Counted from the first letter of the stretch, positions 7,172 through 14,479 are shown. The stretch is 64,000 bases of DNA from Candidatus Heimdallarchaeota archaeon (GCA_018238545.1 JABCTC010000009.1:1-64000); one strand, 5' to 3'. Notes: a model not told the origin generated them from the sequence alone. Made by a program: numbers and translations.

Positions 7172-7729
7172 ATGGTTTTTATCGATTATGTTTGGCATTC
7201 CATTATTGCTATCTTCGCATTTGCACATCCCATGTTCCAAACAAGCTCTTTTGCAAATATCTGGGGTGGAGGTAAACCTGTTGATATGGGCAAAACTTGG
7301 AAAGGGAAGAGAATTCTAGGAGATAACAAGACTTGGAGAGGAGTGATAGCTGGATTAATAGGTGGTACATTCTTTGGAGCATTGTTTTCCTTTTTCTTTG
7401 CAGATCCATTCAATTTGTTTTACGGAAATGTTTTTCCTTGTGAATATCCGATGTATATAGGATTCTTCTTCTCAATCGGAACACATTTAGCTGATTTTAT
7501 AGGTTCTTTCATTAAAAGAAGAATCATCATTCCACCAAGTAGAGGTTTATTCCCTTGGGATCAAATGGGCTATATAATAACAGGTTTCGCTTGTAGTATA
7601 GGTTTCATGTTTCCTCTTAGAGAGTTCTTCTGGTACTATTTCCTGTTTTTGCTAATATCTACTTTCTTCATTCATGTACTTGTCAGCTTTATTGGCTATA
7701 AACTAGGGATAAAAAAAGTATGGTACTAA
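7172..7729 (+). CDS. carS: CDP-archaeol synthase
   Basis: GGGKPVDMGK...RILGDNKTWRG; DFIGSFIKRR; P.WDQ; GYKLGIKKVWY C-terminus. Confidence 0.9.
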   Translation: MVFIDYVWHSIIAIFAFAHPMFQTSSFANIWGGGKPVDMGKTWKGKRILGDNKTWRGVIAGLIGGTFFGALFSFFFADPFNLFYGNVFPCEYPMYIGFFFSIGTHLADFIGSFIKRRIIIPPSRGLFPWDQMGYIITGFACSIGFMFPLREFFWYYFLFLLISTFFIHVLVSFIGYKLGIKKVWY

Positions 7730-7825
7730 GAAATATTGTAGGTTGTAAGATAAAATATAACTCATTTAATCGAAATCTACTCTTGAAAGATTAACATTTA
7801 TATTATACTCTACTATTTTTCATTA

Positions 7826-8689
7826 ATGGCAAAGCAAGAAGAGAAGACTAAGTTTGATTTAATAACACAAGCTAATTATGAAAAAATAGCTAATATTGTT
7901 TTAGTTCCACTATCTGATGGGTCGCAAATTAGAACACTAACAACAGAAGCACCTGAAGAAACATCAAATAACTTTACACTTGTACTTGTTGCTGGCTGGG
8001 TTTCGATAGTTCTAGGTTGGGATGATTTACTTATGGAAGCTAAAGATTTCTTCAATATCCTCTATATTGAGACTAGAGAAAAAGCTACAAGTATAGTTCC
8101 CAAAAAGGGTAAGTTCGATCTTGACCGATATGCTTTGGATATAAAGGAAGCAATTGAATATCATCAACTTAAGGAAAAGAATACAATTATACTCTCTACA
8201 TCTTTCGGTGCGATTTTAGTCGCTTTGATGTTGAAAAACCTAGGAAATAATCCCTGCCTTTCTATACTTGTTGGTCCAATAGAAAGAATATCATTACCTA
8301 TTGCTATAAAACTAGCTATTCTCATTCTACCTGCTTGGATGTTTAATCTAATCAAACCAGTTGGTAACTGGTGGGTTAGGAAATTTAAGACAGAAGACAA
8401 ATATCAAGCAGCTCGTTATATTAGAGCAATTCGTGACTCTGATCCGAAAAAATGGAAAAAAACTATAGGACATGTAGCTTTTGCAAAATTTTGGGGTTTT
8501 TATGAAGGTTTAGATAATAATATCCTAGTTATTGATGAAAGTGAAGATCCTATGCATGATACTGAAGCAACTAAGAAGATAGCCTCTCTCATACCAACTT
8601 CTAGGATTATTGATATCAAAACAAATAGAGCAGCACATTCAACACCTATGATAGAAATAATGCGTAAAGAAATAAGAGAAAATCTCTAA
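7826..8689 (+). CDS. Alpha/beta hydrolase (paralogue 1)
   Basis: VAGW oxyanion region, STSFG nucleophile elbow, EDPMH, AAHS. Confidence 0.8.
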   Translation: MAKQEEKTKFDLITQANYEKIANIVLVPLSDGSQIRTLTTEAPEETSNNFTLVLVAGWVSIVLGWDDLLMEAKDFFNILYIETREKATSIVPKKGKFDLDRYALDIKEAIEYHQLKEKNTIILSTSFGAILVALMLKNLGNNPCLSILVGPIERISLPIAIKLAILILPAWMFNLIKPVGNWWVRKFKTEDKYQAARYIRAIRDSDPKKWKKTIGHVAFAKFWGFYEGLDNNILVIDESEDPMHDTEATKKIASLIPTSRIIDIKTNRAAHSTPMIEIMRKEIRENL

Positions 8690-8696
8690 AATGATT

Positions 8697-12060: not shown

Positions 12061-13551
12061 TTGTCATCATTTCTTCTTTAGTTTCTTCAATATCCTTTCT
12101 CCAGCTTTAATTCCTGAGAAGAAACAAGATGGAACTCCTGCACCCTGAGTATTTCCTCCTGCTAGTAACAAGTTCTTAATAGGTGTTTGCTGTTTAGGTC
12201 TTTTTTGACCTTTTCTCACACCATACCAAGCTCCTTGTGAGTTTAGAGTATATCTTTCAAAAGTTAATGGAGTTGCTGAATCTTTGTAAACTATGTGTTT
12301 AGATAGATCAGGTATAACCTTTTCAGCAATTTGAATTAATCTTTCTGTATACTTTTCTTTTATCTCTGTATAGCGTTCTTTCTGATCTTTTTCTCCAGAT
12401 GTTCCCCAGGTTTCATCCAGATAGTAAGGTGCAAATGTCAGAAAGGTTAGTGCAGAACCTTTTTCGTTTCTCAAAGAAGGATCAATTTTATCTGGAATTC
12501 TAATAAGAACTTCCTCTGGGTTATAATTTCCTTTTGCTATTCTTTCCAAATAACTCTCTGCTTTGATATTGTACGCAATATGAGAAGGATAATTGTCAAG
12601 ATGGATATCTAAACCTAGAAAGACTGCAAAGCCAGTTACAGATTTTTCTAAACCTGAAATATATTCTATGTATTTTTCGGATAATTTTTCCTCTCCAATT
12701 AGATCAAAAGTAGTTTTTTGTATATCAGAATTTGACACTATCCATTTTCCCTTTATTAGTGTCTCATCTTCGAGTTGAACACCTACAGCTTTCCCATTTT
12801 CTATGATAATCTTCTTCGTCTTTGTTTTGTATCTGACCTCTCCACCATTTGCGGTATAAGCTTTGGCTAAATTATTAGCAAATGCAAGCATACCTCCTTT
12901 AGGATAATAATGACCTTGATAGTAGGGAGAAAAGAAAACCACAGCAGCTAAAGTTGCTTTAATCTTCTTTGAAGAAACTCCTAACCAGAGGCAATATACT
13001 GATAAAATGTCTCTTAATTCTACATTTGTAATGAATTTTGTTAGTAAATAATCAAATGATTTTGTAGCATATTTTCTAAGTGTAGGACATGTTAATACAA
13101 TTTTAATCAATTCCCTAAATGAGGGATCAAATTTGCCTTTGACAACAGAAAGAAATTCTTCTTGTATCGATTCAATTACTCTGAAAAAACTTCTAATTTC
13201 ATCTTGTTCATTTGGAAAGTTTTTTATCAATTCTGATATGTATTTCTCTCCATTTGCATGCATTATGATTTTTCTATTTGGGAACTGCATTGTTTCTACT
13301 GGATCAATTGAAATGTATTCTTGATCAACCCCAAATTTGTCTAATACCATCCTAAACGCTTGTCCTTCTCCACAGTAAACTAGACCTTCTGCCCCACTAT
13401 CAAAATAGTAACCTTTACGTTTGAAACCATTCACATATCCACCTGGAATATTATGTTGTTCTAAAATAAGTGTCTTGAGCTTGGGGTTTTCTGATTGCAA
13501 TTTCAAACCTGCGCCTAAACCACCCATACCAGAACCGATGATGATAACGTC
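10579..13551. repeat. Long-range inverted repeat formed by the 5' ends of the two desaturase-family genes
   Basis: GACGTTATCATCATCGGTTCTGG 10579-10601 is the exact reverse complement of 13529-13551; CTCAAGACACTTAT 10651-10664 pairs with 13466-13479. Confidence 0.85.
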
Positions 13552-13569
13552 GAAATTTTCATCATCCAT
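12067..13569 (-). CDS. Phytoene desaturase/retinol saturase-family FAD oxidoreductase, copy 2
   Basis: Same motifs as copy 1; convergent, with a 6-bp gap. Confidence 0.88.
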   Translation of the reverse strand: MDDENFDVIIIGSGMGGLGAGLKLQSENPKLKTLILEQHNIPGGYVNGFKRKGYYFDSGAEGLVYCGEGQAFRMVLDKFGVDQEYISIDPVETMQFPNRKIIMHANGEKYISELIKNFPNEQDEIRSFFRVIESIQEEFLSVVKGKFDPSFRELIKIVLTCPTLRKYATKSFDYLLTKFITNVELRDILSVYCLWLGVSSKKIKATLAAVVFFSPYYQGHYYPKGGMLAFANNLAKAYTANGGEVRYKTKTKKIIIENGKAVGVQLEDETLIKGKWIVSNSDIQKTTFDLIGEEKLSEKYIEYISGLEKSVTGFAVFLGLDIHLDNYPSHIAYNIKAESYLERIAKGNYNPEEVLIRIPDKIDPSLRNEKGSALTFLTFAPYYLDETWGTSGEKDQKERYTEIKEKYTERLIQIAEKVIPDLSKHIVYKDSATPLTFERYTLNSQGAWYGVRKGQKRPKQQTPIKNLLLAGGNTQGAGVPSCFFSGIKAGERILKKLKKK

Positions 13570-13612
13570 AATTTATCACATATGATTGTTCAATAGAAGA
13601 AATTGTTTTCCC

Positions 13613-14479
13613 CTACTCTTCAAGAGAAGGAGAAATTGTTGCCGTGACTGCTCCTTTACCTGCAGATAAAGCCATAACTGCAGACATTTCCCAATAGAAT
13701 ATTTGTTTGATTTTTCGAACTTTTTTAATCTCTTCAATATACCATTCCATTAGTTCAGGATTTAAGGAATCAGCCATGAATAGATCATATTCTTTATCAG
13801 GATGGGTTCTAATTGCTATTTCTTTTATCATCTTCTTCATAGCACTTTTTTCGGAGAAAGCAGCACCTATTCCTATAAAACCTTCTTTCGTATTTACTTC
13901 TGCTATTGGTTTCATCTTAAAGAGTTGTACCATTATACCTTGAACTGAACCACGTTTAACTTTACCTGTTTGGAACAGAGTAATTACATCACCTGTCATT
14001 CCAACAGTATAGATATCTTCTTTTAGTTTATCAAGGTGATCAGTTATTTCTGGGACTGACTTACCCGCTTTTAGGAGCTCTAGAGCACGATAAACCATAG
14101 CTCCTTGAGAACCACATGTAAGGTCAGTAGGATAATGTGTAATCTTGATTTTTCCTTTCACTCTCTTTGCTGCTAATCTTGCAATATTCATATGACTAGA
14201 AATTAAGGGAGTTAATCCCAAGTAGAGTATCTCATTATAGCCATCTTTTATTGCTTGTTCATAAACATCTATGGCATCTTGAGTACTCATCTGACTTGAA
14301 GTTGGATAAGGATCTAATGTACTTAGACTGTTAATAAATTCCTCGCGATTAATTTCAGTTAATTCTCTTTTAGGTTCTTCATTAATCAAAATAATAGACT
14401 CAAAGTAAGCTATTTTTTCATCATCCATAAATTTCTTAGGTAAAAGTGAAGATGCATCTGTGACAAGTTTAATCTTCAT
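13613..14479 (-). CDS. DegV/FakB-family fatty-acid-binding protein
   Basis: KLVTDAS, PTSSQMS, L..TGK, L.MKPI. Confidence 0.85.
   Translation of the reverse strand: MKIKLVTDASSLLPKKFMDDEKIAYFESIILINEEPKRELTEINREEFINSLSTLDPYPTSSQMSTQDAIDVYEQAIKDGYNEILYLGLTPLISSHMNIARLAAKRVKGKIKITHYPTDLTCGSQGAMVYRALELLKAGKSVPEITDHLDKLKEDIYTVGMTGDVITLFQTGKVKRGSVQGIMVQLFKMKPIAEVNTKEGFIGIGAAFSEKSAMKKMIKEIAIRTHPDKEYDLFMADSLNPELMEWYIEEIKKVRKIKQIFYWEMSAVMALSAGKGAVTATISPSLEE

Follow-up and report, generated by a model that had tools for sequence, protein, structure and literature searches.

Whether a single cluster could link archaeal ether-lipid synthesis with fatty-acid handling is the question raised by a row of seven genes at positions 7172 to 14479 of JABCTC010000009.1:1-64000, a stretch of 64,000 nucleotides (nt) from a Candidatus Heimdallarchaeota archaeon (GCA_018238545.1) that we analysed as a whole and call the window. 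Such a cluster had been proposed in an earlier reading made from the sequence only, and it touches a long-standing question, namely the ability of the archaeal ancestors of eukaryotes to process or make lipids with fatty acids. The window is contig C105 of a metagenome-assembled genome (MAG; G000, 3.63 Mb, 91.8% complete, 33% GC), and public records name the source of its proteins as Heimdallarchaeaceae or Heimdallarchaeota. We compared the row with that of genomes G001 to G017, a genome of genus g38 (G088) and a metagenome contig (L130). The gene identities and the lipid theme of the sequence-only reading stood, but its one cluster separated into two cassettes that are inherited apart. The reading that we prefer, with belief and doubt in about equal measure, is that cassette A (7172-9509) and cassette B (9681-14479) are neighbours that joined recently in a variable slot of Heimdallarchaeaceae genomes, with B acting as a chain-handling unit and A in the activation of lipid phosphates or head groups. 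Cassette B is the better-supported functional unit of the two, because the same orthologous lineages of three families co-occur despite rearrangement and across two genera. The genes and their flank are as follows.

7172-7729, + strand: cassette A, CarS-like CTP:lipid-phosphate cytidylyltransferase, a third, lineage-restricted paralogue (PF01864, alignment to 5GUF)
7826-8689, + strand: cassette A, ABH1, predicted serine hydrolase of a small Heimdall-centred alpha/beta-hydrolase family (triad, homology to ABH2)
8697-9509, - strand: cassette A, TTHA0179-like nucleotidyltransferase of the MobA-like superfamily (PF12804)
9681-10559, + strand: cassette B, ABH2, predicted serine hydrolase of the same family as ABH1 (AlphaFold2 model, Foldseek, predicted triad)
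10561-12060, + strand: cassette B, Des1, CrtI-fold flavin adenine dinucleotide (FAD) enzyme of 500 amino acids (aa), nearest the CrtISO/RetSat branch (TIGR02730, TIGR02734)
12067-13569, - strand: cassette B, Des2, CrtI-fold FAD enzyme of 500 aa, paralogue of Des1 (TIGR02730, AlphaFold2 model)
13613-14479, - strand: cassette B, DegV-family lipid-binding protein of a divergent, His-less subfamily (PF02645, TIGR00762)
14652-18174, + strand: conserved flank with TPR protein, 242-aa protein and PadR-like regulator, which marks the genomic slot by synteny and is at most a putative part of the function

Gene layout and conservation of the two cassettes

Open reading frame calling returned the seven genes as intact frames, which bears out the earlier description of a contiguous lipid-related row. 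The family assignments made then also hold, through profile matches to the CarS-like, NTP_transf_3, Amino_oxidase and DegV families and, for the hydrolase fold, through a structural model. One nucleotide separates the ABH2 stop from the Des1 ATG, the same 1-bp gap that had been read from the sequence, and the description of DegV as reading into the second desaturase gene agrees with the measured arrangement, in which Des2 follows DegV on the same strand after a gap of 43 nt; Des2 is probably co-transcribed with DegV. Des1 and Des2 are convergent, and 6 nt separate their stops. TATA-like boxes were seen by eye, in a genome of 33% GC, ~25-30 nt 5' of the CarS, ABH1, ABH2 and DegV starts; the one ahead of the ABH1 ATG reads TTTATATTA. 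Because of the strand changes and these boxes, the layout suggests that the row comprises at least four or five transcription units.

Neighbourhood conservation, which the sequence-only reading had named as its check, was found for parts of the row, with the trio of hydrolase, DegV and flavoenzyme present in two genera, but not for the full row, which is syntenic only in G010 and G016 and fragmentary in G002, at 85-94% protein identity. The two cassettes adjoin in four species only. In G001 and G015 (~40-67% identity) the same slot, recognised by a flank of TPR, 242-aa and PadR-like genes (39-56% identity) and of w118 and w405, holds ABH1 (48-49%) and the nucleotidyltransferase gene (64-66%) together with divergent DegVs, three in G001 and two in G015, and in G001 also a CarS paralogue; neither Des nor ABH2 was found in the cassette A slot of these two genomes. 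In the window this slot has a single DegV of another orthologue group, a second hydrolase and two flavoenzymes, which are members of the separately conserved trio. Cassette B in turn occurs without CarS or the nucleotidyltransferase in G004, G006, G013, L130 and G088. Its rearrangements were observed directly. Des runs towards a converging DegV that is followed by a forward ABH gene, with a separate pair of PadR and HAAS genes ahead, in G004 and L130; G006 has Des and two DegVs, G013 has Des convergent with DegV, and G001 and G008 retain ABH and DegV as a divergent pair. Within 8 kb, G088 carries an ABH2-like gene (54%) divergent from DegV (51%) and two tandem Des1-like genes (47% and 54%), next to genes for an M20 peptidase, an APH kinase and a MacB-type ABC transporter.

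Taken over all compared genomes, DegV orthologues (51-64%) adjoin ABH and/or Des in G001, G004, G006, G008, G013, L130 and G088, and the orthologous DegV and Des stand side by side in five or more species, one metagenome contig and a second genus, with differing orientations (convergent in G004, G013 and L130, co-directional in the window). Four further short public contigs probably each carry Des and DegV as well, since the contigs on which the two genes were found agree in length. A metagenome search with an alignment as query gave 16 loci, and one with a single protein as query gave none. Given that there are 14 DegV genes in 3.63 Mb, we estimate at ~2-3% the chance that any given gene falls within 3 kb of a DegV.

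Proteins of cassette B and their predicted chemistry

The family of ABH1 and ABH2, which are 38% identical, is rare, with 262 cluster representatives at E<=1e-3 among 1.84 billion; its named members come from Heimdall or Kariarchaeaceae MAGs, and it is expanded in this genome to 5 close and several distant copies. The Pfam Hydrolase_4 model is matched by 58 of 80 family members, and the matches of ABH1 (16.6 bits) and ABH2 (22 bits) lie below its cut-off of 27. A direct PDB sequence search with ABH2 gave no match, so a structure model was needed. The AlphaFold2 model of ABH2, with a mean predicted local distance difference test score (pLDDT) of 95.3, matched esterases and lipases in Foldseek with probability 1.0, and template-modelling (TM) scores of 0.65-0.7 were obtained to esterases, a PhaZ polyhydroxybutyrate depolymerase, lipases and a phospholipase A. 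The predicted triad S125, D240 and H270 is nearly invariant in 80 homologues, in which G56, R83, D104 and H243 are further invariant residues; ABH1 has the nucleophile elbow S-T-S-F-G and conserves the Asp and His of the triad. Structural modelling, a check suggested in the sequence-only reading, confirmed for the ABH1/ABH2 family a canonical alpha/beta-hydrolase fold with a predicted Ser-Asp-His triad. Two distant paralogues carry Cys in place of the nucleophile Ser, in the motifs GSCIG and GSCSG (L038:7032-7904 on C73 and L045:7702-8565 on C41); the one on C41 converges on a DegV and has no C-terminal His.

The window DegV scores above the family cut-offs of PF02645 (145.9 bits; cut-off 27) and TIGR00762 (154.3; 99.7) and far below that of the FakB1 equivalog (102 against 350 bits). 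In FakB1 the carboxylate of the fatty acid is held by a hydrogen-bond network of Thr62, Ser95, Ser171 and His270, plus Arg173 (PMC8892158). Compared with Staphylococcus aureus FakB1, the window protein keeps S95, replaces T62 by S, S171 by T, R173 by K and H270 by S, and has a two-residue insertion after the GR motif, so that the network as a whole is not preserved. The protein is a genuine DegV, of the family that the sequence-only reading described as binding fatty acids, but the carboxylate-holding His has been replaced by Ser, and because of this loss its ligand may not be a free fatty acid. The His-less pattern is common to all Des-linked and slot-linked DegVs, whereas 8 other DegV paralogues in the genome keep GGR and His. 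The paralogues accordingly form two classes, one canonical and FakB-like (GGR and His) and one divergent, with (T/S)G(K/R)VK(K/R) and the His lost or shifted. DegV copies number 8-13 in all four sampled family genomes (this one included) and 2 in the three sampled sister-family genomes, and none was found in 54 other sampled genomes of the phylum. Sites in G000 include C48:39345-41203, C62:21876, C42:3665, C47:16541, C82:65429, C43:111691 and 145910, C41:33834, C40:8832, C50:8299 and C38:19573. On C43 (L044:14751-16771) a divergent DegV lies directly 3' of a lipoate-protein ligase (LplA) gene and is co-directional with it.

Des1 and Des2, 47% identical in protein sequence, both match Amino_oxidase, and their best NCBIfam models are carot_isom and crtI_fam. 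The earlier reading had placed them among COG1233 enzymes that act on polyprenyl chains; a CrtI fold is supported, but both proteins fall well short of the cut-offs of the CrtISO model TIGR02730 (Des1 179.5 and Des2 190.3 bits; cut-off 586.9) and of the CrtI family model TIGR02734 (161.5 and 159.1; cut-off 238.1). Because of these scores and the lost DegV histidine, fatty-acid and polyprenyl substrates both remain putative. PDB sequence matches of Des2 were 4dgk (E 1e-20) and 4rep, with 18-21% identity to solved structures, and its AlphaFold2 model (pLDDT 90.6) has 4rep as the best fold match (TM 0.81) and matches 4dgk at E 2e-25. The N-terminal GxGxxG FAD motif is present (GSGMGGLG), and the model shows a CrtI-type fold with a predicted FAD-binding Rossmann motif. 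Kinship with the fatty-acid isomerase of the Propionibacterium type found no support, that enzyme being absent from the PDB sequence matches and from the fold matches listed.

Beyond the near species, Des1 has its nearest relatives in the tandem pair of genus g38 (47% and 54%); homologues of Des2 come mainly from Heimdallarchaeaceae and next from Bathyarchaeia and other archaea, at 34-39%. A quick maximum-likelihood tree groups Des1, Des2, a G004-type clade and a clade without DegV neighbours, with an archaeal clade as their sister. Members of this sister clade (38% identity), found on Heimdall, 'Promethearchaeati' and Bathyarchaeia MAG contigs (L051-L054), consistently have an aldehyde:ferredoxin oxidoreductase upstream and often a flavin reductase and a DUF1847 protein nearby, and this neighbourhood agrees with a requirement for reduced flavin. 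The first 180 nt of the two window genes (10561-10740 against 13390-13569) are 76-80% identical, against 57% for the whole genes, with a third-position identity of 0.57-0.67 against 0.41 overall. We rejected an interpretation of this segment as near-identical 5' DNA, since it coincides with the conserved FAD-binding region; mild gene conversion may have occurred there.

These observations are consistent with a model in which ABH2, a serine hydrolase of a new family, would free a long-chain carboxylic lipid from an ester, the divergent DegV-type carrier would take up and present the chain, and one or two CrtISO/RetSat-like flavoenzymes would alter its double bonds. Saturation or cis-trans isomerisation with reduced FAD would be likelier than carotenoid-type desaturation, because of the CrtISO-like profile and the flavin-reductase neighbour of the sister clade, and the product could enter the route of FakA domain, FakB and PlsY that the genome encodes. 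What the analysis shows is that the genes are intact, which folds, catalytic residues and paralogues they have, and how the two cassettes are conserved and rearranged; we infer the substrates, the direction of the reaction, the hand-over from DegV to flavoenzyme and any coupling of A to B, and the chain may be either a fatty acid or an isoprenoid acid.

Several findings weigh against this model. We know of no CrtI-family enzyme that acts on a DegV-bound substrate, and the FakB His is lost from the window DegV. The association is also incomplete: the DegV orthologue has no Des close by in G003, G007, G008 and G014, and G011 and G017 contain Des but not this orthologue (all in genomes 72-89% complete). 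In G001 and G015, Des and DegV are ~30 kb apart. Among 96 other Des-homologue loci, mostly bacterial, DegV is adjacent only in the Heimdall-like L130. A Des subclade of ~50% identity has another context, with an ATC_hydrolase-like 290-aa protein, a PEMT/ICMT-like membrane methyltransferase and a TPR protein (L015:10377-11246 and 7836-8387 in G011; also G009, G012, G005 and L132). The support, moreover, consists of homology and gene neighbourhoods in a single archaeal family, whose members share so much ancestry that synteny is inflated.

Cassette A, the lipid context of the genome and competing explanations

The window CarS is a member of its family by PF01864 (107.3 bits; gathering score 22) and aligns to ApCarS 5GUF at E 8e-12. 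The genome encodes three CarS paralogues, and the PVD, GDxKT, D..GSFxKRR and DQ motifs, which are common to ApCarS, are invariant across all three. Only the copy on C114 passes the NF003114 equivalog model (152.6 against 148 bits). The statement that this carS makes CDP-archaeol therefore stands for the family and its motifs, but not at the level of the equivalog, where the window paralogue scores 123 bits, below the cut-off of 148. Orthologues of the window gene are confined to G002, G010 and G016 (88-94%) and G001 (67-69%), and other congeners have only the other two types. By these comparisons the window gene is best described as a spare, lineage-restricted third paralogue, not a housekeeping gene, and the C114 copy as the predicted canonical enzyme. 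Insertions of 492 aa near carS in G016 and G002 were considered as transposases and rejected, being beta-helix/NosD-like proteins.

The nucleotidyltransferase matches PF12804 (NTP_transf_3) at 33.6 bits (cut-off 27) and lies far below the cut-offs of all equivalogs of characterised subfamilies. Its family profile finds 2dpw (TTHA0179) at E 1e-18 and KdsB, MobA, LicC (1jyk, E 0.012) and GlmU only marginally, and TTHA0179, the sole clear relative of solved structure, is itself uncharacterised. The usual G-x-G-x-R nucleotide loop reads A-G-H-S-E-K in this protein. The gene is paired divergently with ABH in the row, on C8 of G000 and in the genomes G001, G015, G002 and G016. The paralogous pair on C8 (L036, C8:4356-11138), which is kept in G002 and G016, neighbours an N-myristoyltransferase/GNAT-like protein, a 5'-nucleotidase/metallophosphoesterase, an APH (choline-kinase-like) kinase and an M28 peptidase, and this locus may be a head-group activation module. 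A third paralogue lies in the window itself at 33580-34392 (35% identical; region 32965-35329), and reads in the same direction as the genes for a PAP2 lipid phosphatase (32965-33531) and a 308-aa protein without a Pfam match. We tie the family to phosphate and head-group chemistry because its paralogues adjoin an APH-type kinase and a 5'-nucleotidase on C8 or PAP2 in the window. For cassette A as a whole, the most likely activity would be to activate a lipid phosphate and/or a head-group phosphate with CTP and to hydrolyse an ester.

The genome around the row holds several lipid genes. FakA is represented by a stand-alone N-terminal Dak2 kinase domain of 227 aa (C21:69176-69859; L046:6177-6860) between the genes for leucyl- and threonyl-tRNA synthetase, with 251 bits for the FakA N-terminal domain over positions 1-195 of 530; a second FakA copy interrupted by in-frame stops and a short fragment of the middle domain lie at C100:38848-39459 and C80:2018-2299. 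There are three PlsY genes, and a glycerol-1-phosphate dehydrogenase at C73:107176-108246 scores 401 bits against a cut-off of 413. Neither PlsC (PF01553) nor a CdsA other than the CarS paralogues was found in this genome. Geranylgeranylglyceryl phosphate synthase (GGGPS; TIGR01768/PF01884) had no match over cut-off in this genome, nor in 13 of the 14 genomes of the family, including two that are single contigs, though a divergent form is possible; it was over cut-off in 1 of the 31 genomes of the order (this one and 30 others). A weak PcrB match on C114 was rejected as GGGPS, being a hexulose-6-phosphate synthase.

Could all seven genes form one pathway, in which CDP-archaeol-type activation by CarS, fatty-acid handling by DegV and chain modification make A and B halves of a whole? 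The cassettes are contiguous in four species, paralogues of one rare hydrolase family occur in both, and G001 and G015 place ABH1 and the nucleotidyltransferase, in G001 with the CarS paralogue, beside two or three DegVs of the same subfamily as that of the window. With CdsA and GGGPS undetected and three CarS and PlsY present, action of the spare CarS on a non-canonical lipid phosphate is conceivable. Nevertheless, A and B adjoin only at 85-94% identity. Five of the compared genomes and contigs (G004, G006, G013, L130 and G088) show B but not A, and the A of G001 and G015 does not include Des. The row has at least four or five transcription units, with TATA-like boxes of their own, and the genome lacks a detected PlsC for completing a diacyl lipid. 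The one-cluster reading is further weakened because the full row is confined, carS is not a housekeeping gene, the DegV His is lost and the FAD enzymes fall below their cut-offs, and we regard it as unlikely though worth keeping in view. A link between CarS-type and DegV-type functions is possible since DegVs of the same subfamily adjoin the CarS, hydrolase and nucleotidyltransferase genes in G001 and G015; by this repeated association of cassette A, a coupling of A and B may be kept alive.

Two cassettes, with chain handling assigned to B, also have to be weighed against the idea that Des1 and Des2 act on isoprenoid chains, such as those of unsaturated archaeol, polyprenols, quinone side chains or exogenous carotenoid- or retinoid-like compounds, with DegV carrying an isoprenoid acid or alcohol or being unrelated to Des. 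The CrtI/CrtD fold and the CrtISO-like profile would suit such substrates, as would the overwhelmingly archaeal relatives of Des, including ~690-aa forms from ANME-type archaea. RetSat offers a precedent, as does MA0127 of Methanosarcina, a CrtI homologue that citing articles describe as acting in archaeal core-lipid modification. A DegV pocket that has lost its His may suit ligands other than fatty acids, and the row adjoins a CarS paralogue. Set against this, the conserved partners are an esterase-like hydrolase and DegV and not prenyl-lipid enzymes, an in-house supply of archaeol is only assumed, given that GGGPS went undetected here and in nearly all family genomes, and phytoene/squalene synthase (PF00494) had no match in this 91.8%-complete genome, while 8 of 14 control genomes were matched. 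The last result makes a carotenoid role unlikely, and a part for Des1 and Des2 in carotenoid or retinal biosynthesis was rejected for want of phytoene synthase; Bac_rhodopsin gave no match either, with the rhodopsin control uninformative. We consider action on isoprenoid chains improbable, but not markedly so.

A more specific proposal is a route in Heimdallarchaeaceae for unsaturated fatty acids that are scavenged or ester-bound, in which esterases would free the chain, the His-less DegV would hold it, the flavoenzymes would hydrogenate or isomerise it, FakA domain, FakB and PlsY would build membrane lipids from it on glycerol phosphate and the spare CarS would replace the undetected CdsA in making a CDP-activated intermediate. 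A fatty-acid route as such appears to exist, because the genome has 14 DegV genes, the FakA N-terminal kinase domain and three PlsY, but the complete chain of steps seems to us quite doubtful. That the row is no functional unit, but a set of unrelated members of expanded families that lie side by side in a plastic region and are kept by descent, is very unlikely: the expansion of DegV (14 copies) and ABH (5 close and several distant) does raise the chance of adjacency, the evidence comes mostly from one family of related genomes and the neighbours of the trio vary (PadR and HAAS in G004 and L130 against M20 peptidase, APH kinase and MacB-type transporter in G088), yet Des is accompanied by one set of orthologous DegV and ABH lineages, and not by arbitrary paralogues, over 51-64% identity and in two genera, in spite of inversions and insertions, with gaps of 1 nt (ABH2-Des1) and 43 nt (DegV-Des2).

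Comparison with known systems

The bacterial fatty acid kinase FakA/FakB feeds PlsY in Staphylococcus, Streptococcus and Bacillus, and FakB1 structures are available (5UTO, 6ALW, 6MH9). The window system resembles it in the fold and length of DegV, in a hydroxyl residue at three of the four hydroxyl/His positions of the network, and in a genome that encodes a FakA-type Dak2 kinase domain and three PlsY. It differs in the exchange of His270 for Ser and Arg173 for Lys, in the two-residue insertion and the low FakB1 score (102 against 350 bits), in a FakA that is an N-terminal domain of 227 aa alone, and in its hydrolase and CrtI-fold flavoenzyme neighbours, which occur in no described Fak system. 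PlsY and PlsC homologues in Asgard genomes have already been published (PMC6431249). In the open-access papers searched, DegV was nowhere mentioned together with Heimdallarchaeota or phytoene-type enzymes, nor "fatty acid kinase" together with Heimdallarchaeota, and no description of a trio of hydrolase, DegV and flavoenzyme was found.

With CrtI (4DGK), gamma-carotenoid desaturase (4REP), CrtISO and retinol saturase, the Des enzymes share the fold, the GxGxxG site, full-length alignment and the expectation of a long hydrophobic substrate. Unlike these enzymes, they score far under the cut-offs (190 against 586.9 and 161 against 238 bits) and lie beside hydrolase and DegV genes instead of crt genes, in a genome without a detected phytoene synthase. 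The only published archaeal precedent that we found for a membrane-lipid role of a CrtI homologue, as far as the citing articles describe it, is MA0127, the phytoene-desaturase homologue of Methanosarcina acetivorans that is required for hydroxyarchaeol (Mori et al. 2015, cited in PMC10821996 and PMC12777485). From that description the two are alike in that an archaeal CrtI homologue modifies a membrane-lipid chain and not a carotenoid, and they differ in that producers of hydroxyarchaeol have a full archaeol pathway, whereas GGGPS is undetected here. For cassette A a parallel is the activation of head groups by a kinase and a cytidylyltransferase, as in LicA/LicC of Streptococcus pneumoniae and in Kennedy-type CDP-alcohol formation: on C8 the nucleotidyltransferase paralogue is followed by an APH/choline-kinase-like kinase, and a similar kinase lies near the G088 trio, but the similarity to LicC is not significant, TTHA0179 is closest and the window cluster has no kinase.

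Since the genes of the row fall short of CarS, FakB1, CrtI and CrtISO at the equivalog level, they are superfamily members and not representatives of the characterised families. What this study yields is a defined and conserved three-family cassette and a spare CarS, whose small soluble or simple membrane proteins lend themselves to expression and direct assay. If the flavoenzymes do not act on DegV-bound chains, the row would be a curiosity of synteny; if they do, it would give both the CrtI superfamily and DegV proteins a new reaction context. Should a fatty-acid route that uses CarS in place of CdsA hold as well, it would form a biochemical bridge across the lipid divide, in a lineage near eukaryotes and without detectable GGGPS. 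Relative to the systems described above, the part that appears to be new is the conserved trio in which an esterase-like hydrolase occurs with an atypical fatty-acid-carrier protein and with carotenoid-isomerase-like flavoenzymes, and for which a lipid chain is the putative substrate.

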